DNA from: a bacterium
GTDB lineage: Bacteria > Bacillota_I > Bacilli_A > RFN20 > DUOZ01
Assembly: GCA_012838555.1 (NCBI GenBank)
Contig: DUOZ01000115.1
Span: forward strand, 2,226-66,225
Length of the DNA: 64,000 nucleotides
Direction of reading: 5' to 3'
In this document: positions 33,192 through 63,479 of the stretch, piece after piece
Numbering within the stretch: position 1 is the stretch's first letter
How the letters are laid out: every line of letters begins with the position of its first letter
Notes under the pieces: generated by a model
What the model was told of the DNA's origin: nothing
Databases searched by the model: none
Seen by the model: the letters and a program-made list of their open reading frames with translations, nothing else
Made by a program: the position numbers and the translations under genes

Positions 33192-36068
<2,877 letters not shown>

Positions 36069-45549: not shown

Positions 45550-46419
45550 TTAACGATAATTACCAAAGAAGAATACTGCAATTGTATTAGGCCCTGCATG
45601 AGCTCCAATAACTGGACCAATCGGACTAATAACGATGTCTTTAACATCAAATTTTTCTTTGATTAACTCTGCCATAAATTCTGCATCTTCCTTACAGTCT
45701 CCATGTGAGATAAAGACTGTTTGACTATCATTACTAATGCGTTCTTCAATCTTTTTAACAATATCTTTGAAGGCTCCTTTTCTACCTCTAACAGTGTTTA
45801 AAGGTACTAAACGACCCATATCATCAACGTAAAGGACTGGTTTAAGTTGTAAGACAGTACCTAGGAATGCCTTAGTTGATGATAATCTACCACCTCTTTT
45901 AAGATGACCTAGATCATCAACAGTGAATAAATGACATAGTTTTAATTTGTTTTCTTCAACATAAGTAGCAACTTCATCGATTGATTTACCTTGTTTTTTT
46001 AGATTAAGGGCACTATAGACTAATAACCCTTGACCTAAAGAAGCACTTAAAGAATCAATGGCAATGATTTTGTTATCTTTATATTTATCTTCAAGTTCAT
46101 TTTTAGCGACGACTAGAGAATTGTAGGTTCCACTTAATGCTGATGAAAAAATAATGCATAATACATCTTTTCCTTCTTTTAATATTGGTTCAATTGCTTC
46201 AATAAATTCATTAGGTGAAAGCTGTGAAGTAGTCGCGCTTTTATGATTTCTTAATGAATCATAAAAATCTTTATGTGACATTTCTCTTTCATCACTATAA
46301 TTTTTATAATTCTTGCCATCAATGTTAAAGCCAAGCGGTAATACTTGCAAGTGTTCCTTTTCAATTAAATAAGTAGGTAAGTCACTGCACGAATCGGTTA
46401 AAATAATATAATCTTTCAT
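45550..46419 (-). CDS. DegV-family fatty-acid-binding protein (tandem paralogue 1)
   Basis: The start is at the internal ATG 46419, with a strong GGAGGAG RBS. The protein is 289 aa, MKDYIILTDSCSDLP. The longer ORF from 46479 lacks an RBS. Confidence 0.85.
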   Translation of the reverse strand: MKDYIILTDSCSDLPTYLIEKEHLQVLPLGFNIDGKNYKNYSDEREMSHKDFYDSLRNHKSATTSQLSPNEFIEAIEPILKEGKDVLCIIFSSALSGTYNSLVVAKNELEDKYKDNKIIAIDSLSASLGQGLLVYSALNLKKQGKSIDEVATYVEENKLKLCHLFTVDDLGHLKRGGRLSSTKAFLGTVLQLKPVLYVDDMGRLVPLNTVRGRKGAFKDIVKKIEERISNDSQTVFISHGDCKEDAEFMAELIKEKFDVKDIVISPIGPVIGAHAGPNTIAVFFFGNYR

Positions 46420-46594
46420 TTGTATCTCCTCCTTAAATGAATATATAAAGTCGGTTAATGTCGTTTTATGTAGTTTCAAAAACCCATCATCTAGTTTTCA
46501 AAACTATTTTATAATGGTATAATACTACTTGTCAATAAATATGTGCTTGAACTATTAAATAGAATATTCTAAAATATGAACGGAGTTGATTTTT

Positions 46595-48497: not shown

Positions 48498-48537
48498 ATG
48501 AAAGCGCTTGACAGTTTTTTAAAATGTGTTGTATTAT
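48498..48537 (+). promoter_or_regulatory. Promoter of the fructan-locus operon with overlapping cre-like element
   Basis: The -35 TTGACA is at 48508-48513. An 18-nt spacer leads to the -10 TATTAT at 48532-48537. The upstream cre-like sequence ATGAAAGCGCTTGACA lies at 48498-48513, with a perfect left half TGAAAGCG. Confidence 0.4.
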
Positions 48538-48550
48538 TAAATCATAAAAA

Positions 48551-48568
48551 TGTGGTATCGATACCACA
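48551..48568 (+). promoter_or_regulatory. Perfect 18-bp palindrome (LacI-family-type operator) between promoter and RBS
   Basis: TGTGGTATCGATACCACA is centred on CG. It lies 13 nt after the -10 and 4 nt before the AAGGAGG RBS. Confidence 0.6.
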
Positions 48569-48585: not shown

Positions 48586-49920
48586 GTGAAAAGAGTTAAA
48601 AAGTTTGTTACACTTGCTTTAGCTGCCATGATGCTAGTTGGTTGTGGTGGCAATACTGGTGAAGAAGAATCACCTGATGTAAAAATTGTTAAAATTTGGG
48701 TTCACAAATCCGAAGCAGAAGATGAAGGTAAGGTGTACTCAGCTGTTGCAGATTTATTTAATGAACAAGAAATTAAGACTGCTGATGGCACCAAAACAAT
48801 TAAGATGAAATTAGAATTTAAGAACAGTGCTGAAACACTTTCTAATGCTATTAGTTCAGAAATTCTAACTGGTGGTCTTCCAGATATCGTTGCTGTTGAC
48901 GCTCCTAATATTGCAGCGTATGCAGATGCAGGAATCTTAACAAGTATAGATGATTATTTAACGACAGAAACCATTGATAGCTACGTAAGTAGTGTTATCG
49001 AACAAAGTACTATTGATGGAAAAATTTATGCTTTATCTGCTATGGATGCTCCAACAGGACTTTATTACAACAAAGACTTACTAAAACAAGTAGGTTATAC
49101 AGATGAAGATTTTGGAAGTATTGAAAATCCTTGGTCATGGGTTGATGTTAAAGAAGCTATGGCTAAGTTAAAAGAAAAAGGTTTATCTTATCAAATTAAA
49201 CTAAACCTTGGCTTTGGTGGAGACGAAGGATTAATGTATCTATATTCTGCTCTTGTTTACTCAGCTGGTGGAGACTTCATTACTAGCGAAGGTAAAACTG
49301 AAGGTGCTTTAAATAGTGAAGAAACATTAGCAGGTATTAGAGTCCTTGAAGATATCTTAAGAGTAGATACTAATGGCGATTCATGGTATTACAATGGTGC
49401 CAACACAGATGCTTTAGCAGCTGGTGAAGTTGCGTTTGAAGTCTTTGGCCCTTGGAGTATTGCATCTATTAAGAAAAATTATCCTGAATTTGTAAATAGT
49501 TATGATATTATGCCATTCCCAGTTTATGAAGATGAAAATGGTAATAAGGGAAGTTTAGCTGCTGGTAGTGGATCTTGGGGATTTGGTGTTACACCAAACG
49601 CTAAAGACAAAGACGCTGCAGCTAAAGTACTTGCTTACTTAACTGGACCAGAAGCAAGTAGATTATTATATGAATCAATTGGTACATTCCCAACACATAA
49701 ATCACTATTTGATGAAATTAGTGATTTCCATACAGGTCCATTAAATTCATTAGCAGTTATTTTAGAAAGAGCTGCGACACCACGTCCAAAAATGGTTAAC
49801 TATCCAAAACTAAGCAGTGGATACAGTAAAATCATTTCTTATATTGAAACAATGCATGAATCTGAAGAATATGACCTAGTTGGGTTTATCAATACACAAA
49901 TCGCTCAAATTGATAGATAG
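48586..49920 (+). CDS. ABC transporter substrate-binding lipoprotein (CUT1 / SBP_bac_1 family)
   Basis: It has a GTG start after GGAGG and a signal peptide with lipobox LVGC. The protein is about 444 aa with extracellular solute-binding protein family 1 topology. Confidence 0.8.
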   Translation: MKRVKKFVTLALAAMMLVGCGGNTGEEESPDVKIVKIWVHKSEAEDEGKVYSAVADLFNEQEIKTADGTKTIKMKLEFKNSAETLSNAISSEILTGGLPDIVAVDAPNIAAYADAGILTSIDDYLTTETIDSYVSSVIEQSTIDGKIYALSAMDAPTGLYYNKDLLKQVGYTDEDFGSIENPWSWVDVKEAMAKLKEKGLSYQIKLNLGFGGDEGLMYLYSALVYSAGGDFITSEGKTEGALNSEETLAGIRVLEDILRVDTNGDSWYYNGANTDALAAGEVAFEVFGPWSIASIKKNYPEFVNSYDIMPFPVYEDENGNKGSLAAGSGSWGFGVTPNAKDKDAAAKVLAYLTGPEASRLLYESIGTFPTHKSLFDEISDFHTGPLNSLAVILERAATPRPKMVNYPKLSSGYSKIISYIETMHESEEYDLVGFINTQIAQIDR

Positions 49921-49928
49921 GTCTTATT

Positions 49929-50861
49929 ATGAGTGTTAGTTCAGTAAAAAAACCTAAAAAAATGTATTTTAGGTTTATGGGAAAGAGTTACCGTATATCC
50001 GATACTATAATCGGATATACGTTCCTCTTACCAGCCTTAATACTGGGCATAATCTTCATTATTATGCCGATAGTCATATCTTTAGCTTATGCATTTACTG
50101 ATGCGAACTTATTAAAGTTGAATCAGGTTAATTTCGTCGGACTTAAAAACTTTGAATTCTTGATAAGTGATGAAACTTTATGGCAAGCATTCAAAAATAC
50201 GATGGAATTTGTTATTAAGGTAGTACCACTTCAGTTACTAACTGCACTAGGTCTAGCCTTACTTGTTAATAAGAAAATGAAAGGTAATACTTTCTTTAGG
50301 TGGGCATTCTTTGCTCCAGTTATGTTATCATTAGCAGTTACTTCGATGTTATGGATTAACTTGCTTAACGAACAAGATGGCTTAATTAATGCAATATTAA
50401 CGATGATGGGTTTACCAAAAGAAAAATTCTTAGGTGACCCTAAGATGGCGATGGATTTAATTGTTTTAATCTCAGCATGGCAAGGTGCAGGTTACCAAAT
50501 GTTAATCTTCTTGTCAGGCTTAAAAAATATTCCTAAAGAAATGTATGAAGCAGCAAGTATTGATGGTGCTAATAAAAGACAACAATTCTTTAGAATTACT
50601 TTACCAAGTATTAGACCAACCTTTTCATTCGTATTAATTACCATGCTCATTGGAGCCTTTAGATTAATTACTCAGCCGATGATCATGACACAAGGTGGTC
50701 CAATTAATAAGACTTTAACGATGTCTTATTATATTTATCAACAAGGTATCACTTACCGTGATGTAGGTTATTCAAGTGCGATTGCTCTAGTTTATACCAT
50801 CTTTATGGCAACAATTGCACTAACACTTCGAAAAATCACGGAAAAGGACAACACTGTTTAA
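49929..50861 (+). CDS. ABC sugar permease (MalF/UgpA-like)
   Basis: It has six TM helices and the EAA loop EAASIDGANKRQQFFRITLP. Confidence 0.8.
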   Translation: MSVSSVKKPKKMYFRFMGKSYRISDTIIGYTFLLPALILGIIFIIMPIVISLAYAFTDANLLKLNQVNFVGLKNFEFLISDETLWQAFKNTMEFVIKVVPLQLLTALGLALLVNKKMKGNTFFRWAFFAPVMLSLAVTSMLWINLLNEQDGLINAILTMMGLPKEKFLGDPKMAMDLIVLISAWQGAGYQMLIFLSGLKNIPKEMYEAASIDGANKRQQFFRITLPSIRPTFSFVLITMLIGAFRLITQPMIMTQGGPINKTLTMSYYIYQQGITYRDVGYSSAIALVYTIFMATIALTLRKITEKDNTV

Positions 50862-50869
50862 GGAGGGGT

Positions 50870-51787
50870 ATGATGGAACTTAAATTAAAAAGTGAATCAC
50901 TAAATTATATCCCGCCAAAAAAGAAAAGTTTAACACCAAAGAGAGTAATTAAATCAACATTATTTTACGCATTTATGCTACTACTAGCTGCTATATTCAC
51001 TTTCCCAGTTTTGTGGATGGTAGTAAACAGCTTTAAATCACAAAAAGAAGTATATGAAACCATTAATTCTCTTAGAACATTCCTACCATATACATGGGAT
51101 GTAACGAAATGGTTTGAATCATATAAGAATTTATTCTCAACATTTGACTATTTTGGTCAATCAATCATTAACAGTATCGTTTATGCCTCAATTACGATAA
51201 CAGGCGTCCTTATTATTAATTCAATCGCAGGTTATGCTTTATCTAGATTCGTATTCCCAGGTCATAAACTAATTGTTAATATTATTATCTTAATTCTAAT
51301 TGTCCCTGTGGAAACATCAATCGTTCCATTATACGTTATCTTAAAGAACTTGGGACTTTTAGACCCTAATCTAAGAATTATTGGTTATTTAATTCCTGGA
51401 TTAGTTAGTCCATTTTATATCTTTATGTTTAGAAATTACTTCTTAGGAATACCTAAAGAGTTAGAAGAGGCTGCTTATATTGATGGAGCAGGTAGATTAA
51501 AGACATTTTTTGGAATCATAATTCCGGTATCGTTACCAGTCTTTGCGACAGTTGCCATATTTACCTTTATGGGTTCATGGAATGAATATGTCTTTGCTCA
51601 ATTAATGTTCTCTTCTCCAGCTCAACAGCCATTACAAGTATTCCTACAGTTAATCAATAACTTTAATCCAAAAGATATATCCTTAGTAATGGCATCATTA
51701 ACATTCTCAACGATACCAATTGCGATTGTATATATCTTCTGTCAACGTTACATTGTCGAAGGTGTAGCATTCACAGGATTAAAATAA
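50870..51787 (+). CDS. ABC sugar permease (MalG/UgpE-like)
   Basis: It has six TM helices and the EAA loop EEAAYIDGAGRLKTFFGIIIP. Confidence 0.8.
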   Translation: MMELKLKSESLNYIPPKKKSLTPKRVIKSTLFYAFMLLLAAIFTFPVLWMVVNSFKSQKEVYETINSLRTFLPYTWDVTKWFESYKNLFSTFDYFGQSIINSIVYASITITGVLIINSIAGYALSRFVFPGHKLIVNIIILILIVPVETSIVPLYVILKNLGLLDPNLRIIGYLIPGLVSPFYIFMFRNYFLGIPKELEEAAYIDGAGRLKTFFGIIIPVSLPVFATVAIFTFMGSWNEYVFAQLMFSSPAQQPLQVFLQLINNFNPKDISLVMASLTFSTIPIAIVYIFCQRYIVEGVAFTGLK

Positions 51788-51808: not shown

Positions 51809-54178
51809 ATGAAAAAGACATTATCACTTATATTTATGATGTCAATCATTGTTTCCTTTCTAGGTTGTGCTCAAACTAATATGAACAGTGATTCTCAATT
51901 TATCAATGATTATAAAGATCCTAATCAAGATTCATTACTCTTATCTTTATCTTTTGATGAAGAAAGTGGTAATCAAGTAGAGGATAAAATTACTTCATCT
52001 TTAGCAACTATTAATTATGTGTTTAATGATGCTAAATATAAAAGTAATGAAGATCCTCAAAGGACAAAAAGGTCTGCTGTGAGCGGAAGTGCTCTAGCAT
52101 TTGATGGATATTCTAATTATATTGAGTATCCTTCATCAACTATTCAAGTTCATGGACCTTACTTAACAATTGATGTCTTTGTAAGTCCAAGGATGTTTGA
52201 ATGGGATGACCCATATGCCTTATATAACGGTAATGAAAACTTACAAGTAATACTAGGTCAATATAACAAGGATAGTAAAGCTGGATTTGTATTAGGGATG
52301 CATAAATATGGTAACTTTTCATTCCAAGTTGGACTTGGAGATAGATGGGTTAAGTTATGGAATGAATGGAATAAGTTAGACCGTTATAAATGGAATCATT
52401 TAACTGCCGTCTATAATGGTGAAACTGGCTTCATGGCTTTATATAAAAATGGTGAGATTGTTAACTATGAAGAAAAAGTATTTGGAAGTATAGCACCTGC
52501 TAATGTTCCTCTTTACATTGGTAAAAGTCATCAACCTCAACGTGTCGGAGTCTTTGAACTAAATATGTTTAATGGCTTAATGGATGAACTAAGAATTTAT
52601 AATAAAGCCTTAAATGAAGAAGATATCTATAACTATCATCAAAGTTATCTAATAGATGGAAGTATAAAAGAAGTTAAGTTTGAAGATGCTTGGTTAAATG
52701 CAGATATTTTAGATGATGATATCTATCATCCTAAATATCATGCAACACCCCCACAGCATTGGATGAATGAACCACACGCCTTATTTTATTACAAAGGTTA
52801 TTATCATATGTTCTATCAATTTAATCTTACCGGTCCTTATTGGCGACAAATCACTTGGGGTCATTGGGTAAGTAAAGATTTAGTTAGATGGGAACATGTT
52901 AAAGAAGCTATTGTCATGGATGAAAGAAGTGTTGTTAAAGACGGCGCTTGGAGTGGCAATATGGCTTATAAACAAGATGGAACTCCGGTCTTATTTATTA
53001 CAGCAGGTGATGATGGAAAGTCTTATGGACAATATAGTAATCAAAATATTGCTATCGCTGTCCCTAAAGACTTAAATGACCCTTATTTAACAGAGTGGGA
53101 AATCCATGATTCCTTAGTTGTAACTCATACTTCTAGTATGGGAAGAATGAATGAGTTTAGAGATCCTAATGTTTACTATGAAGATGGAGTTTACTATATG
53201 GTTGTTAGTGCTTCAAAACATGATGGAAAAGGAACAGCCTTATTATTTACAACAAGTGATGATTCATTTACATCATGGAATTATGAAGGGAATTTATTTA
53301 CACCAAAGAATTTCTATCCATACATGGGAAGCACTTGGGAATTGGTGAATTTAGTTAAAGTTCATAACGAAAGTAAAACATTGTCTAAATATCTATTCGT
53401 CTTTTCACCTTCAGGAAGTGGTTCAGATAATGATGTTTATTATTATCTAGGAGATTTTGATAAAAAGACAAAGAGATTTATACCTGAACATGATGATCCA
53501 CTCTTAATGGATTATGGAAATAATGTCTTTACTGGACCGACGATTTACACAGAACCTCATAGTGGAAGAGTCTTAATAAGTTCAATCTTACAAGATCAAA
53601 GAACAGGTAGAGAACATTATGATGCAGGTTGGGCCTTTATGGCTGGAATACCTCGAGAATTATCTTTAGATTATGAAGGTAATTTAAAGGTCACACCGAT
53701 TAAAGAATTAGAGACTTTAAAAGGTGATTCATTAGCAAGTTTAAAAGATACATCAATAAATGTTGCTAATGAAGAGTTAGACAAAGTGGATAGCTCTCAA
53801 GTCTATGTGCATTTAAAAATTAGTACATCTGAGTCTACTAACTTTGGTTTAAAAATTAAAAAAGATGAATTAGGTCGAGAAACAATCATTGGTTATGATA
53901 AATCGACAAAGCAAATATATATTGATACCACTAATTCAGGAAATACAAATGTCAAAGGTATTTTTGGAGGGTATCTAGAATTAATTGATGGTCAAACACT
54001 TGATTTAGAAGTTTATGTCGATGGAGCGACAATTGAGTGTTACATCAATGGATATAAGACAATCTCTGCGATGGTTTATAACACTGCTACTAAGATGGAA
54101 TTCTATGCGGATGATAAAGTAATGATTGATTTACTAGAAATAAACTATATGCAGAGTATCAAGGAGGGGCTTAAATGA
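51809..54178 (+). CDS. GH32 lipoprotein A: N-terminal LamG/ConA-like domain plus GH32 beta-propeller and C-terminal beta-sandwich, with variant active-site motifs
   Basis: The lipobox is FLGC. The LamG-like domain reads LSLSFDEESGNQVEDK...AFDGYSNYIEY. GH32 block A is HWMNEPHALFYY, with Glu at 52769-52771. FSGS is present as WSGNMAY, RDP as FRDPNV, and the EC motif as TWELVN. Confidence 0.8.
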   Translation: MKKTLSLIFMMSIIVSFLGCAQTNMNSDSQFINDYKDPNQDSLLLSLSFDEESGNQVEDKITSSLATINYVFNDAKYKSNEDPQRTKRSAVSGSALAFDGYSNYIEYPSSTIQVHGPYLTIDVFVSPRMFEWDDPYALYNGNENLQVILGQYNKDSKAGFVLGMHKYGNFSFQVGLGDRWVKLWNEWNKLDRYKWNHLTAVYNGETGFMALYKNGEIVNYEEKVFGSIAPANVPLYIGKSHQPQRVGVFELNMFNGLMDELRIYNKALNEEDIYNYHQSYLIDGSIKEVKFEDAWLNADILDDDIYHPKYHATPPQHWMNEPHALFYYKGYYHMFYQFNLTGPYWRQITWGHWVSKDLVRWEHVKEAIVMDERSVVKDGAWSGNMAYKQDGTPVLFITAGDDGKSYGQYSNQNIAIAVPKDLNDPYLTEWEIHDSLVVTHTSSMGRMNEFRDPNVYYEDGVYYMVVSASKHDGKGTALLFTTSDDSFTSWNYEGNLFTPKNFYPYMGSTWELVNLVKVHNESKTLSKYLFVFSPSGSGSDNDVYYYLGDFDKKTKRFIPEHDDPLLMDYGNNVFTGPTIYTEPHSGRVLISSILQDQRTGREHYDAGWAFMAGIPRELSLDYEGNLKVTPIKELETLKGDSLASLKDTSINVANEELDKVDSSQVYVHLKISTSESTNFGLKIKKDELGRETIIGYDKSTKQIYIDTTNSGNTNVKGIFGGYLELIDGQTLDLEVYVDGATIECYINGYKTISAMVYNTATKMEFYADDKVMIDLLEINYMQSIKEGLK

Positions 54179-56532
54179 AAAAAACCTTAACTAAAATTTT
54201 AACATTTATCTTTATATTATTAGTAGCTTCTAGTTGTAATTCTTCTGGTAGTGATAAAGATTTAATGCTATATCTTTCATTTGATGAAGGAAGTGGCAAT
54301 AAGGTTGAAGATAAAGCTAAGAAATTAGATACAGCGACAGTTCAATATGTCTTTAATAATCCAAAGTTTCAACCCTCACCTCAAGATCCTCAGTGGCGAG
54401 AAAACGGTGTGATAAATGGAGCGTTACTGTTTGATGGGTATTCAAATTATATCCGTTATAACTATGAAGACATTAAGATAAGAGGTTCTTCTTTATCAAT
54501 AAGTGTGTTTGTAGCCCCTAGAGCTTTTGAATGGGATGACCCAAATGCTAAAGAAAAGGGTACTGATAAATTAACAGCGATTGCATCTCAATATAGTAAA
54601 GATACCAATAGTGGATTTATTCTAGGTTATCAACGTCACGGTGCATTTAGTTTCCAAGTTGGTCTTGGAGATCGTTGGTTAACTATTTGGGATGAGGGAA
54701 ATCCACTTAAGAAGTATGAATGGAACCATATAAGTGCGGTATTTGATGGTAAAAAAGGTAGAATGGCTCTTTATTTAAACGGAGAATTAATTAATGAAAA
54801 ATTATTTTTTGAAGGAGCTGAAATCGCACCAGCATATGATGAACCATTATTAATTGGTAGAAACAATTATCCTGGTTCAAATGCAACTGCTAGTTTAAAT
54901 ATGGTAAGTGGATTACTAGATGAATTAAAAATTTATAACCGAGTTTTAAGTACTAGTGAGATTGAAAAATATGTTAACGGTATTGACATACCAAAATTAG
55001 AATATGAAGATATTGCGTTAGTTAATATTCTGCAAGATGATTATTACAAAACTCAATATCATGGTGGTCCATATCAACATTGGATGAATGAACCACATGC
55101 GCCACTTTATTATAACGGTTATTATCACTTATTCTTCCAACATAATTTATTTGGTCCTTATTTTAGAAATATTGGTTGGGGACATTTAGTAAGTGAAGAT
55201 ATGGTCAATTGGCGTCCATTAAAGGAAATTATTATGCCAAGTGCAAATACAGTAGCACCTGATGGAGTTTGGTCAGGTGGAGCCACTTATGATAAAGATG
55301 GTGTACCAGTTTTATTCTTCACAGCAGGTAATGATTCATTTAGAAAAGATGGATTAATCAGCAATCAAAATATCGGTATTGCTCGACCTAAAGATAAAAA
55401 CGATCCATTACTTCAAGAATGGGTTGTAGGTGAAGAATTAGTAATTGCTCAACAGCCTGGTCAAGGTAAACCGGGTGAATTTAGAGATGCTCACCTGTTT
55501 ATTGAAGATGATACTTATTATTTCTTAATTGGTTCAGCAAGCACTAAACCAAATACAGGTGGAACAGCACTTCTATTTACTACTAAGGATGATTTAGAAA
55601 ACTGGACTTATAAAGGTCAATTATTTGAGATTCAAAATCAACCTGGTGATTTAGGTAGTGTGTGGGAGTTACCAGTCTTGTTACCGGTTTATAACGAAGC
55701 TAAAACAATTAAAAAGTATGTCTTTATTATCTCGCCAGCACCAGCCGATAGAGCAGATAACGACATTTATTACTGGATAGGTGATTTTGATAAAGTAAAT
55801 GGACGCTTTATCCCTGATGCAAGTTTTGGTAATAAACCTAGACTGCTTGATTATGGAAACAACGTCTTTACAGGTCCTTCAGGATTTATTGATCCAAAGA
55901 CAGGTAAGGCAATTATCTTCTCAATTATGCAAGATCAAAGATTACCTGGACATGTTGCTAGTTCTGGTTGGGCTAATAGTGTTGGATTAGCTAGAGAAAT
56001 CTACTTAAATGATGATGGTAGTGATCTAAAGATTAGACCAGTTGAAGCAATTAAAAACTTAGAAGACAAAACTCTAGCCGAGTTTAAAAATAAATCAGTT
56101 AATGACGCTAATGCGTTATTAAAAGATGTTAAAGGAGATATGCTTTATATCCATGTTGAATTTAAAAATGTGAGTGCAAGTAACTTTGGAATTAAAGTTA
56201 GAAAGAATGACAAAGTACTTGAAGAAACAGCTTTCTACTATGATGTAACTACATCTACAGTAGGAGTTAGAACAGGACTTAGTGGAGCTTATAGTAGTAA
56301 CCAAAATATTGCAGGTAAATTCTATGGACCATTAAGTTTAGATGAAAACACATTAAAAATGGATTTATATCTAGATAGATCATTAATTGAAGGATTCTTT
56401 AACTCTGATAAAGCAATCTCAGCTCGAGTGTATCCTGATATCACCTCATTAGGAATTGAATTATTTGAAGAAGGTGGCACGGTCGAGATTAAGAATATGG
56501 TAGTTAAGACCATGCGCTCAATTTATGAATAG
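54175..56532 (+). CDS. GH32 lipoprotein B: paralogue of A with LamG-like N-terminal domain and variant motifs
   Basis: The lipobox is ASSC. The LamG-like domain reads LYLSFDEGSGNKVEDK...LFDGYSNYIRY. GH32 block A is HWMNEPHAPLYY, with Glu at 55090-55092. RDP is replaced by FRDAHL and the EC motif by VWELPV. It overlaps the upstream gene by 4 nt. Confidence 0.8.
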   Translation: MKKTLTKILTFIFILLVASSCNSSGSDKDLMLYLSFDEGSGNKVEDKAKKLDTATVQYVFNNPKFQPSPQDPQWRENGVINGALLFDGYSNYIRYNYEDIKIRGSSLSISVFVAPRAFEWDDPNAKEKGTDKLTAIASQYSKDTNSGFILGYQRHGAFSFQVGLGDRWLTIWDEGNPLKKYEWNHISAVFDGKKGRMALYLNGELINEKLFFEGAEIAPAYDEPLLIGRNNYPGSNATASLNMVSGLLDELKIYNRVLSTSEIEKYVNGIDIPKLEYEDIALVNILQDDYYKTQYHGGPYQHWMNEPHAPLYYNGYYHLFFQHNLFGPYFRNIGWGHLVSEDMVNWRPLKEIIMPSANTVAPDGVWSGGATYDKDGVPVLFFTAGNDSFRKDGLISNQNIGIARPKDKNDPLLQEWVVGEELVIAQQPGQGKPGEFRDAHLFIEDDTYYFLIGSASTKPNTGGTALLFTTKDDLENWTYKGQLFEIQNQPGDLGSVWELPVLLPVYNEAKTIKKYVFIISPAPADRADNDIYYWIGDFDKVNGRFIPDASFGNKPRLLDYGNNVFTGPSGFIDPKTGKAIIFSIMQDQRLPGHVASSGWANSVGLAREIYLNDDGSDLKIRPVEAIKNLEDKTLAEFKNKSVNDANALLKDVKGDMLYIHVEFKNVSASNFGIKVRKNDKVLEETAFYYDVTTSTVGVRTGLSGAYSSNQNIAGKFYGPLSLDENTLKMDLYLDRSLIEGFFNSDKAISARVYPDITSLGIELFEEGGTVEIKNMVVKTMRSIYE

Positions 56533-56546
56533 AGGTGGGAAATGAA

Positions 56547-58583
56547 ATGAAAAGAATAACTAGTTTGGTAATGATTGGTATTATGCTCTTATTGTTTGGA
56601 TGTAATGATACCACAGTAAAAGAAATTACTAACCCAAGCTTTGAAACAGGAACATTAAGAGGTTGGGAAATAAAAGGAGAAGCCTTTAGTAATAGTGGAG
56701 TTATCTTTGATGATAAAGATAGTAAAGGAAATTATTACAATCAAGAGGGAGACTTCTTCTTCTATGGTGGAAAAGCCAAAAAAGGCTCTGTTGGTGAATT
56801 GTTATCAAATGAATTTATTTTAAGTGGAAATGGATTAATCGGTTTTAAAATTGGAGCCGGTAAGAATTATGAAAAATGTTATGTTGCCTTAATTGATAGT
56901 AAGGGTAATGTACTTGTTACTCGAGGCAATTATGAATTCGATGAAAATGACTCTGCAGATACATTACACCGCGTAATCTTAGATGCATCGAGTCACGTTG
57001 GAAAAAAAGTAAGAATTAAGGTTGTTGATAATGATAGTGGTGTAGATGGATATAACTACATCAATGTTGATGACTTTATAGTGAATTATCAAGGAGTTGT
57101 AGAACCAGTGGGAAAAGTAGCCAAAGCACATCAGTATGTCTTAGATAACATGCACAAAGTTAATCCTCGTTATCGTCAGACATATCATGCAATGCCCCCG
57201 CTTAATTGGGGGAACGATCCGAATGGATTAATTTATTATCAAGGAAAAGGTCATTTATTCTTCCAATTCAATCCTTATGATTCTGTTTGGGGTCCAATGC
57301 ATTGGGGGCATTACACTACCGAAGACTTTATTAAGTGGGAGTTGCAACCAGTTGCATTAGCACCAGACAAGGATTATGACAATCAATTTGGAGCCTTTAG
57401 CGGTACAGCGATTGAAAAGGACGGAAAGCTCTACTTAATGTATACAGGTGTAGCTAATGACTTACAACAACAAGCTCTAGCAGTCTCAAGTGATGGAATT
57501 ACGTTTGAGAAATTAAACCGTAATCCAGTTATAAGTGTCAATCAATTACCAAAAGGAGCTTCACCAAAAGACTTTAGAGATCCAAAAGTCTTTTATAAGG
57601 ACGGAAGTTACTATGCCATTATTGGTAGTAGGATGAACGGGTATGGAATGATTTTAATGTATAAATCTCATAATTTAACTTCATGGGAATATGTAGGAGA
57701 AGTTATGAATAGTTCCAATCCAAGTGAACCTAATTTCTATCAACTAAGTGGAGTTTATGAATGTCCTGATTTCTTTGAAATTGATGGTAAAGAAGTGATT
57801 ATTGCATCACCCCAATTCTTACCTCAAGATGGAAACAAATTCGAGAACATCCATTCAGTTGTCTATATGATTGGTAACTTTAACTATGAGACTGGAAGGT
57901 TTACTTATGATGAATTTATTGAATTTGACAGTGGATTTGATTTCTATGCGGCTCAAACATTAAAACATGAAGATGGTAGAACAATCTTAATCGCTTGGAA
58001 ACAAATGTGGGACCGTACTTTAGTTACTCAAGCAGATAACTGGGTAGGCTCATACACATTACCAAGAGAATTAACTTATAAAAATAACCGCATTTATCAA
58101 GCTCCAGTTAGAGAAATCGAAAATTATCGTAAGAACCATGTGAGCTATACTAATCAAGTTATTGATGAAAAATTAAAACTTGATAAGGTTGTTGGAACGA
58201 CTGTTGAATTAGAGTTTGAATTAGAAATGAATAATGCTTCTAAAGCAGGAGTTAAATTATTCAAAGGAGCTTATAACGAAACAGTCTTATCTTATGACAA
58301 AGCTACACAAACATTAACATTTGACCGCTCTAGAAGTGGTAAGTCAATTTCAGGAGCAGAATCAAATGACTTCTATCGTGCTGAAACGATTCCATTAATT
58401 GATGGAAAAATTAAATTAAGAATTTTCCTTGATGTATCAAGTGTGGAAGTCTTTATTAACGATGGATATATGACTATGACAAGTAATGTTTATCCAGATG
58501 AGTTTGATGTTGGCATTGAGTTCTTTTCTGAAAATGGTCAAGCAAGAATTACATCATTAGATAAATATGACATTATAGTTTAA
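56547..58583 (+). CDS. GH32 lipoprotein C: canonical beta-fructofuranosidase/fructanase with N-terminal CBM-like module
   Basis: The start MKRIT follows an AGAGGTGGG RBS, and the lipobox is LFGC. The N-terminal module runs from NPSFETGTLRGW to YINVDDFIV. Canonical motifs are present: NWGNDPNGLIYY (Asp at 57216-57218), FSGTA, FRDPKV and YECPDFF. Confidence 0.85.
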   Translation: MKRITSLVMIGIMLLLFGCNDTTVKEITNPSFETGTLRGWEIKGEAFSNSGVIFDDKDSKGNYYNQEGDFFFYGGKAKKGSVGELLSNEFILSGNGLIGFKIGAGKNYEKCYVALIDSKGNVLVTRGNYEFDENDSADTLHRVILDASSHVGKKVRIKVVDNDSGVDGYNYINVDDFIVNYQGVVEPVGKVAKAHQYVLDNMHKVNPRYRQTYHAMPPLNWGNDPNGLIYYQGKGHLFFQFNPYDSVWGPMHWGHYTTEDFIKWELQPVALAPDKDYDNQFGAFSGTAIEKDGKLYLMYTGVANDLQQQALAVSSDGITFEKLNRNPVISVNQLPKGASPKDFRDPKVFYKDGSYYAIIGSRMNGYGMILMYKSHNLTSWEYVGEVMNSSNPSEPNFYQLSGVYECPDFFEIDGKEVIIASPQFLPQDGNKFENIHSVVYMIGNFNYETGRFTYDEFIEFDSGFDFYAAQTLKHEDGRTILIAWKQMWDRTLVTQADNWVGSYTLPRELTYKNNRIYQAPVREIENYRKNHVSYTNQVIDEKLKLDKVVGTTVELEFELEMNNASKAGVKLFKGAYNETVLSYDKATQTLTFDRSRSGKSISGAESNDFYRAETIPLIDGKIKLRIFLDVSSVEVFINDGYMTMTSNVYPDEFDVGIEFFSENGQARITSLDKYDIIV

Positions 58584-58741
58584 AAATTTAATTTGATTAT
58601 TTAGGTCATAAAAAAGGAAAAAGGTTAGATTCATCCAAGTCATGTCGGGGTGATGATCAGGGAGAATCAAACCTTGTATATATAGCATACCACTTTTATG
58701 GCCTGAATATAAACAAAAAATGCAAAATGGAGGTAAAAAGT

Positions 58742-61492
58742 ATGAAAAACTTAGTAAAACGCATTTCAATCACCCTCCTTGCAGTGTTGACGCTATCAAT
58801 TGCATCAGCATGTAACAATCAAGGAGGTACTTCCATCCCTACAACTATCGAAAACGGTGGTTTTGAAGAAGGTACTCAAGAAACCTGGACAGGATGGACA
58901 AGAACAGGAACTGCCTTTTCATCTCGTGGTGTTGTTAATGATACACAGGTTAATGGCATAACTGTAGATAAAGAAGGCGAATATTGGTTTAGTGGACTAG
59001 ATGGTGGAACTCAAAAGATGACTGGTACACTTACATCAAATGTCTTTAAATTAACAGGAACAGGCCATATCGCTTTTAAAATGGGCGCAGCAAAATATGG
59101 AGACAAAATCTTTGTTGAATTCATTGAAGATGGTACTGATACTGTTTTAGCAAAAGTTACAAACAGTGATTACAATGAACCATGGATTACTGACCAAATG
59201 ATTCGTAAAATTGTTGACTTATCAGAACATTTAGATAAGAATATCTATATTAAAATTACTGATAATGATAACAATGATGATTATGGTTATGTTAACCTTG
59301 ATGACTTTGTTATTTGTCTAACTCAAGAAGATGTTAATAAATATACTACAGAAAGAAATAACCAATTAGAAGCTTATTCTGAACCAGAATTTGAAGAAGA
59401 TGAAACTTCAACAACAATTCAAAACCCTGGTTTTGAAACTGGAGATTTAACTGGTTGGAAAATCTTAAGTGGTACAGCCTTTGGTGGAAACGTAATTGTT
59501 CCTACTTCACAATACTACTGGACAGATAGATCAGTTTATGGTGAAGGTGAATACTACTTAGATGGCAATAACAATGGTGAAATTGCTGAATCTGCAGTAG
59601 GTGTAGTTCGTTCATCTAAATTCACTCTTGCAGGCGATGGCTTTATTTCATTCATGATTGGTGCTGCACCAACTAATTGTTATATTGCTATTAATGATGG
59701 TGTTACTGGTGAAGAATTAATTAAAGTTACAAATACTACCTTTAAAGACCCTGCTTTACCATTAACATTAAGAAGAGTTTATGTTGATGCCTCTGCTTAT
59801 TTAAATAAAGTATTATATATCACAATCGTGGATAACAATCCTTCAAGTGGTTTTGCCTTTATCACTGCGGATGATTTCCATGTAAGTATGACTGAAGAAG
59901 AAGTTGTTTCATTAATGAAATATCAATATGATAAGATTATGAATGAAACTTATACTGATTCATACAATTCATTATTACACTTACAAAACTATTATCAAAA
60001 CTATGAATATCCATTTGAACTTCCTGCATTAGTCTTTGAAAATAAAGCAAGTGGAGTTGTTAGTGGAATTAAAGAAGATGTTAACTTAAATGATTTCATT
60101 AAAGATGTCGTTATTAAATACGGTAGTGTAGATGTTCCAGCTGCAATTACTAAAGTTGTCTTTGAAGAAGAAACATTTACAGATGGTTTCGATTCATTTG
60201 ATTTAGCAAATGAAGGTACATATGTAGTTTACTATGGTGCTACATATGAAGGAGAAACTATTGAAGATTCATTCAATATCGTTGTGGCAGGTAACGTTAA
60301 CGTTGTTAACGGTGGCTTTGAAACTGGCGATATGACTGGTTGGACAGTTGTTGAAGGTGAAATTGATGACGGTGTTATCGATGCTGAAACATACTGGGGC
60401 GAAAAGATTGCTTATAACCGTCATGGTAACTATCACTTTGATGGTTGGACAGCAACTAGCGATGAACCAGCAGGATATGTCTTACGTTCAAATACATTTG
60501 TTCTATCAGGAACAGGTTGGGCTTCATTCATGATGGGTGGAAACGCTGCTAGAGTACGTGTTAGTTTAGCAGATGGTACACCAATTGGATACTTTACTAA
60601 CTATAAATTCCTTGATGAAGGATTCCCACTCTTAGCTACAGGTGGAAGATGGGCTACAATGACTAGATACTTTGTTGATTTATCAGCTTACCTAGGCGAA
60701 GAAGTCTATGTTGAATTAATCGATGACGCTAATGCTGCTGGTTGGGCAGTTGCCTTCTTTGATGAAATTAACTTCTACCATGAAACTACACCAGATGTAG
60801 AAAATGGATTTGATACAGTTCTAGAATCTAATGAAACTGGTGAAGAAGTTCAAATCCACTGGGAATATGCAGATAATGCTTATATCATTAATGGTGGCTT
60901 TGAAACTGGTGACATGACTGGATGGACTAGTGAAGAAGTTAAAGTTAATGCTGTTATTAGCGATTCATTCTACTGGAATGAAAAACTTCCATACAATCAA
61001 ACTGGTAATTACCACTTTGATGGATGGAGTTCAGGTGTAAATGAAAATGAAACTTATGCTTTAAGATCAACAGTATTTACACTACATGGAACAGGATATA
61101 TCTCTGTTAAAATGGGTGGAAATGCTGCAGCAGTTAAAGTTTACTTAGAAGATGGAACTCTTGTAGGTTTCTATAAACAAAACCGTTTCAGCGATACTAA
61201 CTTCCCTAACTTAGATCAAGGTGGTTCATGGGCTGATATGGGTAAATACTTCTTTGACTTAAGTGATTATGTAGGTCAAAAACTATATATCGAATTATTA
61301 GATATTGAAGTTGAAGGTTGGGCAGTTGCCTTCTTTGATGACGTAATTACTTACTATGAAGAATTACCTGATATTGATAATGGCTTTGACACTGTAACTT
61401 TATACTCTCTAGATGATGATGGTGAATTTACAGTTGAACGTAGTCATAACATTCCATGGCAATTAGCATCTAATCTAGTAGAAGCTGAATAA
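58742..61492 (+). CDS. Surface lipoprotein made of four tandem CBM-like beta-sandwich modules (homologous to the N-terminal module of GH32-C) and no catalytic domain
   Basis: It has a GGAGG RBS and a signal peptide with lipobox IASAC. The four repeats start at NGGFEEGT (about 58847), NPGFETGD (about 59417), NGGFETGDMTGW (about 60305) and NGGFETGDMTGW (about 60893). Each ends in a ..DDF.. motif. Confidence 0.6.
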   Translation: MKNLVKRISITLLAVLTLSIASACNNQGGTSIPTTIENGGFEEGTQETWTGWTRTGTAFSSRGVVNDTQVNGITVDKEGEYWFSGLDGGTQKMTGTLTSNVFKLTGTGHIAFKMGAAKYGDKIFVEFIEDGTDTVLAKVTNSDYNEPWITDQMIRKIVDLSEHLDKNIYIKITDNDNNDDYGYVNLDDFVICLTQEDVNKYTTERNNQLEAYSEPEFEEDETSTTIQNPGFETGDLTGWKILSGTAFGGNVIVPTSQYYWTDRSVYGEGEYYLDGNNNGEIAESAVGVVRSSKFTLAGDGFISFMIGAAPTNCYIAINDGVTGEELIKVTNTTFKDPALPLTLRRVYVDASAYLNKVLYITIVDNNPSSGFAFITADDFHVSMTEEEVVSLMKYQYDKIMNETYTDSYNSLLHLQNYYQNYEYPFELPALVFENKASGVVSGIKEDVNLNDFIKDVVIKYGSVDVPAAITKVVFEEETFTDGFDSFDLANEGTYVVYYGATYEGETIEDSFNIVVAGNVNVVNGGFETGDMTGWTVVEGEIDDGVIDAETYWGEKIAYNRHGNYHFDGWTATSDEPAGYVLRSNTFVLSGTGWASFMMGGNAARVRVSLADGTPIGYFTNYKFLDEGFPLLATGGRWATMTRYFVDLSAYLGEEVYVELIDDANAAGWAVAFFDEINFYHETTPDVENGFDTVLESNETGEEVQIHWEYADNAYIINGGFETGDMTGWTSEEVKVNAVISDSFYWNEKLPYNQTGNYHFDGWSSGVNENETYALRSTVFTLHGTGYISVKMGGNAAAVKVYLEDGTLVGFYKQNRFSDTNFPNLDQGGSWADMGKYFFDLSDYVGQKLYIELLDIEVEGWAVAFFDDVITYYEELPDIDNGFDTVTLYSLDDDGEFTVERSHNIPWQLASNLVEAE
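60305..61367 (+). repeat. Intragenic tandem duplication (modules 3 and 4) with near-identical DNA stretches
   Basis: A 26-nt identical run GGTTGGGCAGTTGCCTTCTTTGATGA occurs at 60741 and again at 61317. AACGGTGGCTTTGAAACTGG occurs at about 60308, with a 1-mismatch copy at about 60889. Confidence 0.6.
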
Positions 61493-61500
61493 TCCTTTAA

Positions 61501-61537
61501 TCAGAGGATGAAAAAGTCTCATCCTCTGATTTATTTT
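61501..61537 (+). terminator. Strong rho-independent terminator after the CBM-repeat lipoprotein gene
   Basis: An 11-bp stem TCAGAGGATGA/TCATCCTCTGA has a 7-nt loop and is followed by TTTATTTTAT. Confidence 0.7.
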
Positions 61538-61567: not shown

Positions 61568-62548
61568 GTGGTCGATTTGGTTCAGATTAAAGATGTAGCA
61601 AAAAGAGCCGGATGCGGAACGAGCACTGTATCAAGAGTTCTAAATAATTCTGGCTATGTCTCAAAAGAAACACGAGAAAGAATTGAAAGAGCAATCAAAG
61701 AATTAAAATATGTGCCTAATCAGATGGGAAGAAATCTTAAGCGACTTAGTTCGCATTTAGTAGCATTATTTGTTCCAACAATCTCTCACCCATTCTTCTC
61801 TAAAATTGCATATTACATTGAAAATTATCTTTATAAATATGGGTTTAGAATGATTATAGTATCTTCTCAAGATAATAAGGAAAAAGAAGTTAAACTTCTT
61901 GATATGATAAAAAATAAACAAGTTGATGGGATTATCTTTATTACGACTCATATTCATGATGATGTTAATTTTGAAGGAATGTCTATTGTTACATTAGATA
62001 GAAAAATACCAGGAGTCCCTTGTATTGCCTCAAATAACTATGAGTCAACATATGAAGCGGTTGAATATTTAGTTAAACTAGGTTGTAAAAAAATTGGTTA
62101 TATCGGTGGTTTAACTAAAGTAGGTTCTGAAGTTGAAAAAAGATATGAAGCTTATTGTGATGTCATGAATAAGTATCAATTAGAGATTATTGATTGTCGT
62201 AAAGAAATATTACACGGAGAAGAGTACAATATCTCAAAAGAGTTTATTGATGAAAATCCTGATTTGGATGCGATTTTTGCTCAAAGTGATATATTTGCCC
62301 ATTGTTGTTATCTAATTGAATTGCAAAGAGGTAGAAAGATACCTGAAGATATTAAGATTGTTGGATATGATGGTGTTATGGATGAAATTTACCAACATCC
62401 TACTTTTACTGTTGTTAGGCAAAACTTAGATAAATTAAGTGAAAAAATTGTTCAACAATTAGTTAGACGAATGAAAAAGAAAAAGTGTGAGAAACTTTCA
62501 ATTGTACCTGCTGATTTTATTATTGGTGAAACTACTGAGGTGAAATAA
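61568..62548 (+). CDS. LacI-family transcriptional regulator
   Basis: It has a GTG or TTG start. The N-terminal HTH is IKDVAKRAGCGTSTVSRVLNN. The C-terminus is a periplasmic-binding-protein-like sugar-binding domain. Confidence 0.85.
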   Translation: MVDLVQIKDVAKRAGCGTSTVSRVLNNSGYVSKETRERIERAIKELKYVPNQMGRNLKRLSSHLVALFVPTISHPFFSKIAYYIENYLYKYGFRMIIVSSQDNKEKEVKLLDMIKNKQVDGIIFITTHIHDDVNFEGMSIVTLDRKIPGVPCIASNNYESTYEAVEYLVKLGCKKIGYIGGLTKVGSEVEKRYEAYCDVMNKYQLEIIDCRKEILHGEEYNISKEFIDENPDLDAIFAQSDIFAHCCYLIELQRGRKIPEDIKIVGYDGVMDEIYQHPTFTVVRQNLDKLSEKIVQQLVRRMKKKKCEKLSIVPADFIIGETTEVK

Positions 62549-62549
62549 G

Positions 62550-63479
62550 ATGATTTTATGTATTGGTGAAATACTTGTTGATTTAATTGGTAAAGAAGTA
62601 AATGGACGTACTAGTTATGATGTTTTTGCCGGAGGTGCTCCATTTAACGTAGCTTGTGGAATTAAAAATTTCGGAGGCAATGTTATATTTATCGGTAATG
62701 TTGGTGACGACATTATGGGTAGGTTTTTATTAGACTTCGCTAATAAAAGAAGTTTTGATAAATTATTAATTTCTCTAGATCAAGAACATAATACAACACT
62801 TGCTTTTGTTAAAAATGATGAAGATGGTGAAAGAAGTTTTTGCTTTCATCGTAAAAATACTGCTGATTATTTTTTTAATACAGATTACTTTGCTGAAATT
62901 GAAAATGCTGATATTGTTCATGTAGGTACTTTAATGTTATCAAATGAAGAAGGAAGAAAAATGGCAGACTTAATCATTGAAACAACAAAGAAAAGTGGTA
63001 AGTTATTAAGTCTTGATATTAACTTTAGAGATGATATTTATAAGAGCAAAGAAGAAGCAATTAAAGTATATCAACATTATGCTTCAAAGGCTGATATAAT
63101 TAAATATTCACTAGATGAACTTCAATTATTTTCATCTAAGCATGATATATATCAAGCTTTAAATGAAATAGCAAAGCCAAATCAATTAGTCTTTTTAACC
63201 TTAGGTAAAGAAGGTTCACTATGTTATTACAATCAAAATGTCGTTAAATCACATTCAATAAAAGTAATGTCTGTGGATACAACTGGAGCTGGTGATGCCT
63301 TTTATGGTGCGATTTTATCCCAACTTGACCGTATAGGATTTGAAAACTTTGTTAAGGATAAGAATGTAATTAAAGAGGTGTTAAGATTTGCTAATCTTAC
63401 TGGAGCTTTAACAACAACAAAAAAAGGCGCGATTGATGCCTTACCTACTTTAGAGGAGATTAATACATTTACTAAGTAA
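62550..63479 (+). CDS. Fructokinase (pfkB/ribokinase family)
   Basis: Its N-terminus reads ILCIGEILVDLIG and it carries the C-terminal TTGAGDAF motif. It is 309 aa and lies 1 nt after the LacI stop. Confidence 0.8.
   Translation: MILCIGEILVDLIGKEVNGRTSYDVFAGGAPFNVACGIKNFGGNVIFIGNVGDDIMGRFLLDFANKRSFDKLLISLDQEHNTTLAFVKNDEDGERSFCFHRKNTADYFFNTDYFAEIENADIVHVGTLMLSNEEGRKMADLIIETTKKSGKLLSLDINFRDDIYKSKEEAIKVYQHYASKADIIKYSLDELQLFSSKHDIYQALNEIAKPNQLVFLTLGKEGSLCYYNQNVVKSHSIKVMSVDTTGAGDAFYGAILSQLDRIGFENFVKDKNVIKEVLRFANLTGALTTTKKGAIDALPTLEEINTFTK

Follow-up and report, generated by a model that had tools for sequence, protein, structure and literature searches.

Inulin and levan rank among the major fructans of prebiotics and forage, and endo-acting enzymes decide which gut bacteria attack the polymer and which only scavenge oligosaccharides. 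Enzymes of glycoside hydrolase family 32 (GH32) that use Glu as nucleophile are represented in the literature found by a handful of characterized examples, all of them endo-inulinases. Enzymes of this type (EC 3.2.1.7) cut beta-2,1 fructan at random internal sites and yield mainly DP3-DP5 products. In the characterized examples, the Glu of the motif WMNEP is the nucleophile of an ordinary retaining hydrolase: INU2 from Aspergillus ficuum (EC 3.2.1.7; PDB 3RWK and 3SC7) has the catalytic residues E43, D176 and E233, with EVP as its acid/base motif, and its E43D mutant shows ~5% activity, while EnIA from Arthrobacter sp. S37 has E323, D460 and E519, with an 'RDF' motif reported (PMC3829992, PMC5245892, PMC5984348, PMC13416181). 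Fungal endo-inulinases have the further signatures PTANVWGN in loop 1 and AVMNSYGSNP in loop 4 (PMC6042768). The Glu is no general marker of endo-action, because the endo-levanases BT1760 (Bacteroides thetaiotaomicron) and LevB1 (PDB 9H8I) use Asp. The genes GH32-A and GH32-B (Table 1), found in a window of 64,000 nucleotides (the whole stretch of DNA analyzed), encode two further GH32 proteins with Glu at this position.

Table 1 Features of the locus, with positions in the window
Feature	Position	Strand	Details
Candidate sigma-70-like promoter	48508..48537	+	TTGACA-18-TATTAT, 11/12 consensus match; best of region; 5' of transporter genes
Candidate LacI-family operator	48551..48568	.	Palindrome TGTGGTATCGATACCACA; 18 bp, perfect; unique in window, 0.04 expected by chance
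ABC solute-binding protein, putative lipoprotein (SBP_bac_1)	48586..49920	+	444-aa gene call on identical contigs
ABC permease 1 (BPD_transp_1)	49929..50861	+	
ABC permease 2 (BPD_transp_1)	50870..51787	+	
GH32-A	51809-54178	+	789 aa ORF; putative lipoprotein with Cys20
GH32-A, LamG domain	52103-52627		Residues 99-273
GH32-A, predicted nucleophile E321	52769-52771		
GH32-A, predicted transition-state stabilizer D452	53162-53164		
GH32-A, predicted acid/base E511	53339-53341		
GH32-B	54175-56532	+	785 aa ORF; putative lipoprotein with Cys21
GH32-B, LamG domain			Residues 88-263
GH32-B, predicted nucleophile E306	55090-55092		
GH32-B, D438 of RDA	55486-55488		
GH32-B, predicted acid/base E498	55666-55668		
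GH32-C	56535..58583	+	682 aa, canonical GH32; putative lipoprotein (Cys23)
Protein D	58727..61492	+	921-aa putative lipoprotein; four copies of GH32-C N-terminal module; synteny in related loci
Intrinsic-terminator-like hairpin	61499..61531	+	13-bp stem, then T run; ends operon
LacI-family transcriptional regulator	61568..62548	+	Synteny in related loci
PfkB-family sugar kinase, fructokinase-like	62550..63479	+	Synteny in related loci

Domains and catalytic residues of GH32-A and GH32-B

The start of GH32-B lies on the stop of GH32-A in an ATGA overlap, and both products show the same Pfam domain order, with Laminin_G_3 (PF13385; E = 5.9e-19 and 69.1 bits in GH32-A, 1.9e-18 and 67.5 bits in GH32-B, gathering cut-off 27.6) followed by Glyco_hydro_32N (1.6e-60 and 2.4e-55) and Glyco_hydro_32C (1.7e-22 and 6.7e-26). 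By these domains and their catalytic triad, both proteins are members of GH32 (clan GH-J), and the N-terminal LamG domain proposed in a preliminary description of the sequence is indeed present. An AF2 model of GH32-A (pLDDT 93.6, pTM 0.89) has an all-beta LamG region with pLDDT >90 and a GH32 part that superposes on all solved GH32 enzymes; in a Foldseek search with this model, GH32 structures were the only matches (probability 1.00). Putative lipobox cysteines, read by eye, occur in GH32-A (SFLGC20), GH32-B (VASSC21), GH32-C (LLFGC23), protein D (IASAC) and the solute-binding protein (MLVGC), with Cys20 of GH32-A showing conservation of at least 90% among family members.

Reading of the ORFs confirms the HWMNEPHA motifs and the GAA codons (52769 and 55090) first noted in the preliminary description: GH32-A has HWMNEPHAL (E321), FRDPN and WELV, and GH32-B has HWMNEPHAP (E306), FRDAH and WELP. 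Alignment by phmmer against the PDB places this Glu, as had been supposed, in the column that the nucleophile Asp takes in 3PIG, 7VCO and 2AC1 (WINDPNG/WMNDPNG), and hhalign (profile-profile, probability 100%) sets the E/D/E of GH32-A on the D/D/E of the canonical family. In the WEL motif, E511 (GH32-A) and E498 (GH32-B) likewise match the acid/base Glu of ECP by profile-profile alignment, in agreement with the earlier reading that the Glu is kept and the Cys lost. Pairwise phmmer had offered S508 of GH32-A as acid/base residue; this is a local misalignment, hhalign and conservation both pointing to the invariant E511.

The motifs W-M-N-E, R-D and W-E-L are invariant in all 118 close relatives, as are the substrate-binding residues N320 and Q337 and the W381-S-G block (GH32-A numbering). 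Invariant residues of the LamG domain include D99, R128 and E131. The Glu substitution is therefore no chance or sequencing oddity, and Glu is likewise the residue at this position in 140 of ~153 aligned domains from the 150 best representatives in a library of 1.84 billion proteins. The residue after RD varies freely among the 118 relatives (P 48, A 41, S 12, M 11, F 5), so that the RDA of GH32-B, correctly reported earlier, is ordinary within the family. As predicted from these alignments, Glu, Asp and Glu most likely fill the three catalytic roles in GH32-A and GH32-B, making both competent retaining beta-fructosidases.

Comparison with characterized enzymes

INU2 resembles GH32-A and GH32-B in the Glu of W-M-N-E-P, the RDP Asp, an acid/base Glu without a following Cys (EVP versus ELV/ELP) and the two-domain GH32 fold (3SC7 against the GH32-A model: TM-score on target 0.82, r.m.s.d. 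2.9 Å, identity ~21%). It differs in being fungal and in having no LamG domain. The fungal WMNEPNG motif and the loop-1 and loop-4 signatures are absent from GH32-A and GH32-B, which have WMNEPHA(L/P) instead, the loop-1 equivalent in GH32-A being NLTGPYWRQ. The bit score of GH32-A is 108 with INU2 and 133 with the exo-acting beta-fructofuranosidase 3PIG, and the canonical GH32-C scores 147 with INU2. Because the sequence of GH32-A resembles Asp-type GH32 enzymes at least as much as it does INU2, the shared Glu may be convergent and, judged from sequence, may not entail the specificity of INU2.

EnIA, compared by its published residue numbers, is closer in layout: it is bacterial, has 813 residues (789 and 785 in GH32-A and GH32-B), has its nucleophile at Glu323 (E321 in GH32-A) and, judged by residue numbering alone, has ~310 residues N-terminal of the nucleophile, as in both proteins here. 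Its Glu-to-Asp spacing is 137 (131 in GH32-A, 132 in GH32-B, 137 in some relatives), its Asp-to-Glu spacing 59 (59 and 60, respectively), and a residue other than Pro follows RD, as in GH32-B. By contrast, its motifs are quoted as WMNEPNGL and ECMP. Neither a search for its catalytic residue numbers among the library representatives nor a profile search started from high-GC members of the family recovered EnIA among the named matches. InuG, a synthetic construct (WGF13389.1) of the Thermoanaerobacter italicus Ab9 GH32 protein ADD03331.1, has the same LamG, GH32N and GH32C domains as GH32-A and GH32-B, the motifs HWMNEPHAP, FRDP and WELP, and 42% identity to GH32-A over 94% of the length of the latter. 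A literature search for InuG or a T. italicus inulinase found no paper, and inulinase activity is suggested by the depositor's name alone.

BT1760 and LevB1, from gut and soil bacteria, resemble what is proposed here for GH32-A and GH32-B in being surface or secreted GH32 endo-fructanases whose oligosaccharides feed an importer and an exo-GH32. However, they use Asp as nucleophile (in BT1760, within GFVGDPMP), have no LamG domain and match GH32-A only weakly in sequence, 9H8I doing so over an N-terminal stretch alone (E = 6.5e-9).

A fructan-utilization operon and its relatives

GH32-C, described previously as fully canonical, proves to be so, with the motifs WGNDPNG, FRDP and YECP (D228, R348-D349-P350 and E409-C-P). 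A CBM-like module of 190 residues forms its N terminus, and the protein is presumed to be an exo-acting beta-fructofuranosidase. Protein D, whose sequence gave nothing meaningful against the PDB, is presumed to be a surface fructan-binding protein. The solute-binding protein, listed as an ORF from 48550, likely starts at the GTG at 48586, which follows a GGAGG ribosome-binding site; its matches in the PDB were generic CUT1 oligosaccharide binders only, none of them specific for fructo-oligosaccharides. In related loci a strict regular-expression search for the operator gave no match, and a general palindrome search found the related motif TTGGAAACGTTTCCAA upstream of the gene for the solute-binding protein. 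No RNA elements emerged when the window was scanned against Rfam.

The database search for other WMNEP-type GH32 proteins, called for in the preliminary description, revealed a large bacterial family of LamG-bearing, Glu-type GH32 proteins that extends across phyla. At 75 genome loci, the usual neighbors of the WMNEPHA gene are a WMNDPNG GH32 gene and genes for a PfkB fructokinase, a LacI regulator and ABC permeases, and some proteins join Glu-type and Asp-type GH32 domains in one chain, which suggests that the two activities are complementary rather than redundant. GH32-A and GH32-B belong to a large bacterial family found in ordinary fructan-utilization operons. The view of these proteins as a distinct GH32 subgroup stands, with a specificity that probably differs from that of GH32-C; the altered mechanism once suggested for them does not, the Glu nucleophile being that of an ordinary retaining hydrolase. 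Nor is WMNEP new, since the variant has already been characterized in INU2 and EnIA. The picture of GH32 chemistry is therefore unchanged.

Probable function

We propose, with a probability of about 0.62, that GH32-A and GH32-B are Glu-nucleophile, LamG-bearing surface lipoproteins that cleave polymeric fructan internally within this operon. The proposal builds on the observed domain architecture, the alignment and invariance of the catalytic residues, the conserved synteny and the putative lipoboxes. E321 (GH32-A) or E306 (GH32-B) would act as nucleophile, the Asp of RD(P/A) as stabilizer and the Glu of WEL(V/P) as acid/base. Anchored in the membrane and bearing LamG at their N termini, the two enzymes would cut fructan internally, in the manner of endo-inulinases, to give fructo-oligosaccharides, which the Asp-type GH32-C with its CBM-like module would trim. 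Surface retention of the polymer is probably the task of protein D with its four modules; uptake of the products would fall to the CUT1-type ABC system, the PfkB kinase would phosphorylate fructose, and the LacI regulator probably governs the operon via the palindrome. The interpretive part of this explanation comprises internal cleavage, the preferred linkage (beta-2,1 or beta-2,6), the function of LamG and regulation.

Exo-action is the most substantial alternative: GH32-A and GH32-B could be active as exo-acting or oligosaccharide-releasing exo-enzymes (levanbiohydrolase-like or inulobiose-forming), with Glu and LamG tuning subsite geometry and the cleft not being opened. It would fit the nearest solved structures by sequence, which are exo-acting beta-fructofuranosidases, the use of Asp by endo-levanases, and the stretch from Q337 to WGH (the equivalent of INU2 'loop 1'), which has 16 residues in GH32-A, GH32-C and INU2 alike. 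However, an exo-type GH32 of the canonical kind, equipped with a binding module, is already present in the operon, Glu-type and Asp-type genes occur together nearly everywhere and are sometimes fused, and the characterized Glu-nucleophile enzymes in the literature found are, without exception, endo-inulinases. We consider exo-action unlikely, if far from negligible.

Two other roles, both raised in the preliminary description, fare worse. The transfructosylase or anhydrofructose-forming role suggested there finds no support, and it is very improbable that the proteins are transfructosylases or fructotransferases, for instance of the kind that forms difructose anhydride (DFA). GH32 fructotransferases (the levan enzyme 4FFF-4FFI and plant enzymes such as 3UGF) do match the GH32-A model structurally, and HA rather than NG after the nucleophile is unusual, but the solved levan fructotransferase uses Asp54, as judged from entries for its D54N mutant, and the context of importer, fructokinase and exo-GH32 is catabolic, with no DFA-hydrolase-like gene seen downstream in the locus. 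That GH32-A and GH32-B are catalytically dead, fructan-binding pseudo-enzymes is hardly credible: three canonical motifs are altered (NDPNG, ECP and, in GH32-B, RDP), and two distant LamG-GH32 relatives (P0366 and P0385) have lost all three catalytic residues, yet all three carboxylates are kept in GH32-A and GH32-B and throughout the 118 relatives, and the Glu in question is the proven nucleophile of INU2 and EnIA.

If internal cleavage is taken to hold for GH32-A and GH32-B, a broader proposal can be put forward tentatively, as possible rather than probable. The WMNEPHA-type clade as a whole might be a cross-phylum endo-fructanase family, biochemically and structurally uncharacterized, that gained its Glu nucleophile independently of the fungal endo-inulinases; its tightly packed LamG domain might form part of the polymer-binding cleft, and the recurrent A-type and B-type paralogues might have come to differ in the linkage they attack (beta-2,1 against beta-2,6 or graminan, for example) or in the chain length they prefer. 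In gut Firmicutes, the clade would then account for the main step by which dietary fructans are depolymerized. The family is not mentioned in an in silico survey (PMC10390659). Function prediction in Clostridia, Lachnospiraceae, Christensenellaceae, Paenibacillus, Streptomyces and others would improve if LamG-GH32 genes with a Glu nucleophile were treated as probable endo-fructanase genes. One family member is encoded by Streptomyces rochei, a producer of inulotriose-forming inulinase according to published work. Database labels for the family are generic, such as 'GH32 C-terminal domain-containing protein' and 'sucrose-6-phosphate hydrolase SacC'.

Motifs and catalytic residues of the three GH32 proteins

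Three GH32 genes lie in tandem (see table), and their sequences read as set out in the preliminary description. Motif A is HWMNEPHAL in GH32-A and HWMNEPHAP in GH32-B, with GAA codons for E321 and E306 at 52769 and 55090, respectively; FRDPN and WELV follow in GH32-A, and FRDAH and WELP in GH32-B. The third paralogue, GH32-C, is fully canonical, as had been stated (WGNDPNG, FRDP and YECP). Pfam assigns Laminin_G_3, then Glyco_hydro_32N and Glyco_hydro_32C, to GH32-A and GH32-B, all exceeding gathering thresholds and bearing out the LamG-like N-terminal domain noticed earlier; GH32-C has two GH32 domains only. The GH32-A stop overlaps the GH32-B start in an ATGA (54175–54178), and 2 nt separate the GH32-B stop from the GTG start of GH32-C, which suggests translational coupling of the three genes.

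The Glu of GH32-A aligns exactly with the nucleophile Asp of 3PIG, 7VCO and 2AC1 (phmmer, all PDB chains), a Bifidobacterium longum β-fructofuranosidase, a Frischella β-fructofuranosidase and an Arabidopsis cell-wall invertase, respectively. In the pairwise phmmer alignments, the ECP acid/base Glu falls opposite S508 of GH32-A, three residues before the WELV Glu; family alignments of 118 relatives of GH32-A and GH32-B and of 117 relatives of GH32-C were therefore built and compared by hhalign. With a probability of 100%, this comparison pairs E321 with the NDPNG Asp, again placing the Glu on the nucleophile position, R451-D452 with RDP, and E511 of WELV with the YECP Glu. S508 was rejected as the acid/base counterpart: position 508 varies in the family (T, S, R, Q, E or K), whereas W510-E511-L512 is invariant and E511 is the residue picked by the profile alignment. 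On these grounds, the catalytic triads are assigned as E321/D452/E511 in GH32-A and E306/D438/E498 in GH32-B.

Conservation, spread and structure of the family

All 118 family members retain W318, M319, E321, H323, Q337, N339, W381, G383, F450, R451, D452 and E511, and 117 keep N320. The position following RD is unconstrained (P 48, A 41, S 12, M 11 and F 5 in the 118-sequence alignment), so the RDA of GH32-B is ordinary within this LamG-GH32(Glu) family; in close relatives, the acid/base Glu is followed by Leu or Met and never by Cys. The motif changes first described as degenerate, RDA and the loss of Cys, are real, but the former is commonplace and the catalytic residues are invariant.

A word-indexed search with GH32-A returned 600 relatives at E ≤ 1e-10, and WMNEP occurs in 109 of the 120 best. 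With HMMER run exhaustively over 1.84 billion cluster representatives, 462 proteins reached E ≤ 1e-30; in the top 150, Glu occupies the nucleophile column in 140 aligned domains and Asp in 10. The Asp cases are second, canonical GH32 domains within multidomain proteins, together with three relatives that carry an S-D motif. Genome scanning found the family in metagenome-assembled genomes of Clostridia, Lachnospiraceae, Christensenellaceae and Oscillospiraceae from rabbit, chicken, ruminant and mouse guts, and in Pumilibacter muris, Agathobacter ruminis, Paenibacillus, Cohnella, Fontibacillus, Neobacillus and Priestia megaterium; profile searching extended it to Streptomyces, S. rochei among them, and to Oxalobacteraceae. 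Two clades can be distinguished, a minor A-type (24 of 118; HWMNEPHAL, WEL[V/T]N) and a major B-type (94 of 118; HWMNEPHAP, WELP). In 11 of 75 loci compared, a second member of the family has its best score against GH32-A, and all 11 also have a B-type gene.

The AlphaFold2 model of GH32-A, built from a 59-sequence alignment, is confident (mean pLDDT 93.6, pTM 0.89), and from it the LamG, propeller and sandwich domains are predicted to be fixed relative to one another. Its Foldseek matches in the PDB are all GH32 enzymes and cover about two-thirds of the model, and no solved structure found in this search combines LamG with GH32. Database labels are generic (‘GH32 C-terminal domain-containing protein’, ‘LamG-like jellyroll fold domain-containing protein’, ‘sucrose-6-phosphate hydrolase SacC’), and this bacterial clade of LamG fusions seems under-annotated and, to the extent of our searches, structurally uncharacterised. 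A Thermoanaerobacter italicus relative (42% identical to GH32-A) is deposited as a synthetic construct, ‘InuG’, for which a literature search found no paper. P0424, a 977-aa LamG-GH32 protein encoded in S. rochei genomes, has WMNEPHAP, FRDP and WELP. The literature cites strain E87 of S. rochei as producing an inulotriose-forming inulinase; tracing did not find the gene for that inulinase, and P0424 could be this enzyme, the link being circumstantial.

Probable activity of GH32-A and GH32-B

A full-text literature search for ‘WMNEP’ led straight to endo-inulinases. In Aspergillus ficuum INU2 (3RWK/3SC7), the nucleophile is E43 (YWMNEPNG), with D176 (RDP) and the acid/base E233 (EVPDM), and E43D retains ~5% activity (PMC5245892, PMC3829992); according to reviews, Asp to Glu in motif A is what sets endo-inulinases apart (PMC6042768, PMC5984348, PMC13416181). 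[quoted passage not shown] Its 2439-bp gene encodes 813 aa, which places the nucleophile ~320 residues in, as in GH32-A (321) and GH32-B (306). The spacings are also similar: Glu to Asp is 137 in EnIA and several relatives, 131 in GH32-A and 132 in GH32-B; Asp to Glu is 59 in EnIA and GH32-A, 60 in GH32-B and 62–63 in several relatives. The preliminary description, accurate in observation and sensible in reasoning, had suggested an altered mechanism or specificity for GH32-A and GH32-B; their ‘non-canonical’ residues are instead the established endo-inulinase variant of GH32, with ordinary hydrolase activity, which is the outcome that the description itself had named as refuting its reading.

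The best-supported reading is that GH32-A and GH32-B are active retaining hydrolases with a Glu nucleophile, acting as surface endo-fructanases. The residue assignments, conservation, architecture and synteny come directly from the present analysis; endo-action we infer, as we do any choice between β-2,1 and β-2,6 linkages, division of labour between the two proteins and role for LamG. Some caution against over-reading is warranted: HA(P/L) rather than the NG of INU2 follows the Glu, and known endo-levanases have an Asp nucleophile. The GH32-A model superimposes on the endo-inulinase 3SC7 (target-normalised TM-score 0.82, r.m.s.d. 2.9 Å). In sequence comparisons, GH32-A scores 108 bits against INU2, no better than against exo-acting enzymes (133 bits for 3PIG), and the canonical GH32-C, at 147 bits, is nearer to INU2 than GH32-A is. 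The Glu of the fungal and bacterial clades may therefore have arisen independently. An exo-acting or oligosaccharide-releasing hydrolase, although unlikely, is the alternative to take most seriously. Fructotransferase activity is improbable. Least probable of all is the pseudo-enzyme suggested earlier, which the invariant catalytic residues contradict; at the sequence level, such conservation points to active enzymes kept under purifying selection. Two distant LamG-GH32 relatives, P0366 (WTGRPMAP/FQDP/WVAP) and P0385 (WVGQPFAP/FNAP/WVAS), have lost all three catalytic residues: nucleophile, Asp or Arg of RD, and acid/base Glu. These are candidates for genuine pseudo-enzymes within the clade and illustrate a true loss pattern.

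The fructan-utilisation locus

Features of the locus and its surroundings
Feature	Position	Remarks
GH2 β-galactosidase	33210–36068	further upstream
DegV-family tandem paralogues	44542–45411, 45550–46479	minus strand; just upstream of locus
Promoter-like site	48508–48537	best of region; unit begins here
Perfect palindrome, 18 bp	48551–48568	TGTGGTATCGATACCACA; between promoter-like site and SBP start; unique in window
SBP gene start	48586	GTG; GGAGG ribosome-binding site ahead
GH32-A	51809–54178
GH32-B	54175–56532
GH32-C	56535–58583
GH32-C N-terminus with D-type module	56598–57164
Protein D	58727–61492	921 aa, predicted lipoprotein; four module copies
Terminator-like hairpin	61499–61531	strong; operon end, 3' of D
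LacI regulator	61568–62548	3' of hairpin

The gene for the ABC solute-binding protein (SBP) is followed by two permeases, GH32-A, GH32-B, GH32-C, protein D, the hairpin, the LacI regulator and a PfkB kinase. The ATG at 48550 listed for SBP is probably not its true start. The palindrome, with a counterpart (TTGGAAACGTTTCCAA) upstream of SBP genes in related loci, is probably an operator of the LacI regulator. Most of the 75 loci place a WMNEPHA gene next to a GH32 of the canonical WMNDPNG type, together with two ABC permeases, a LacI regulator and a PfkB kinase; a protein D homologue is present in many, and the protein D gene is syntenic in >35 related loci. GH32-A and GH32-B belong to a very large family and are typical of it, and their operon is a standard one for fructan utilisation.

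SBP, GH32-A, GH32-B, GH32-C and protein D each begin with a putative signal peptide that has a terminal lipobox cysteine, so the whole degradative apparatus is predicted to be surface-anchored. There, GH32-A and GH32-B would cut fructan internally, with GH32-C as exo-acting partner and protein D binding the polymer, and the ABC system and kinase would complete uptake and entry into glycolysis. Five library proteins (P0086, P0277, P0282, P0301 and P0318) fuse a WMNDPNG GH32 with a LamG-WMNEPHA GH32 in a single chain, thereby naturally joining enzyme types that have separate genes in this locus, a ‘Rosetta-stone’ pattern suggesting that the Asp and Glu types act together. The modules of protein D (~170 residues each) match the GH32-C N-terminus (BLASTP E from 3e-23 to 5e-10). 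Sequence searches of Pfam and PDB gave nothing above threshold for these modules, with weak hints of CBM_4_9 and NTTRR-F1, and they may form an undescribed fructan-binding family.

The moth β-fructofuranosidases are of bacterial origin (compare Bombyx BmSUC1, PDB 7BWB), and this fits the lepidopteran sequences among the matches of GH32-C (P0221, P0225, P0229 and P0234, from Plodia, Ostrinia, Helicoverpa and Maniola/Aphantopus; ~950 aa, 36–38% identity). A DUF1836 protein and a metallophosphoesterase follow the DegV pair on the plus strand. Housekeeping genes (a PcrA-like helicase, LigA, GatA/GatB and formate–tetrahydrofolate ligase) mark the region as chromosomal.
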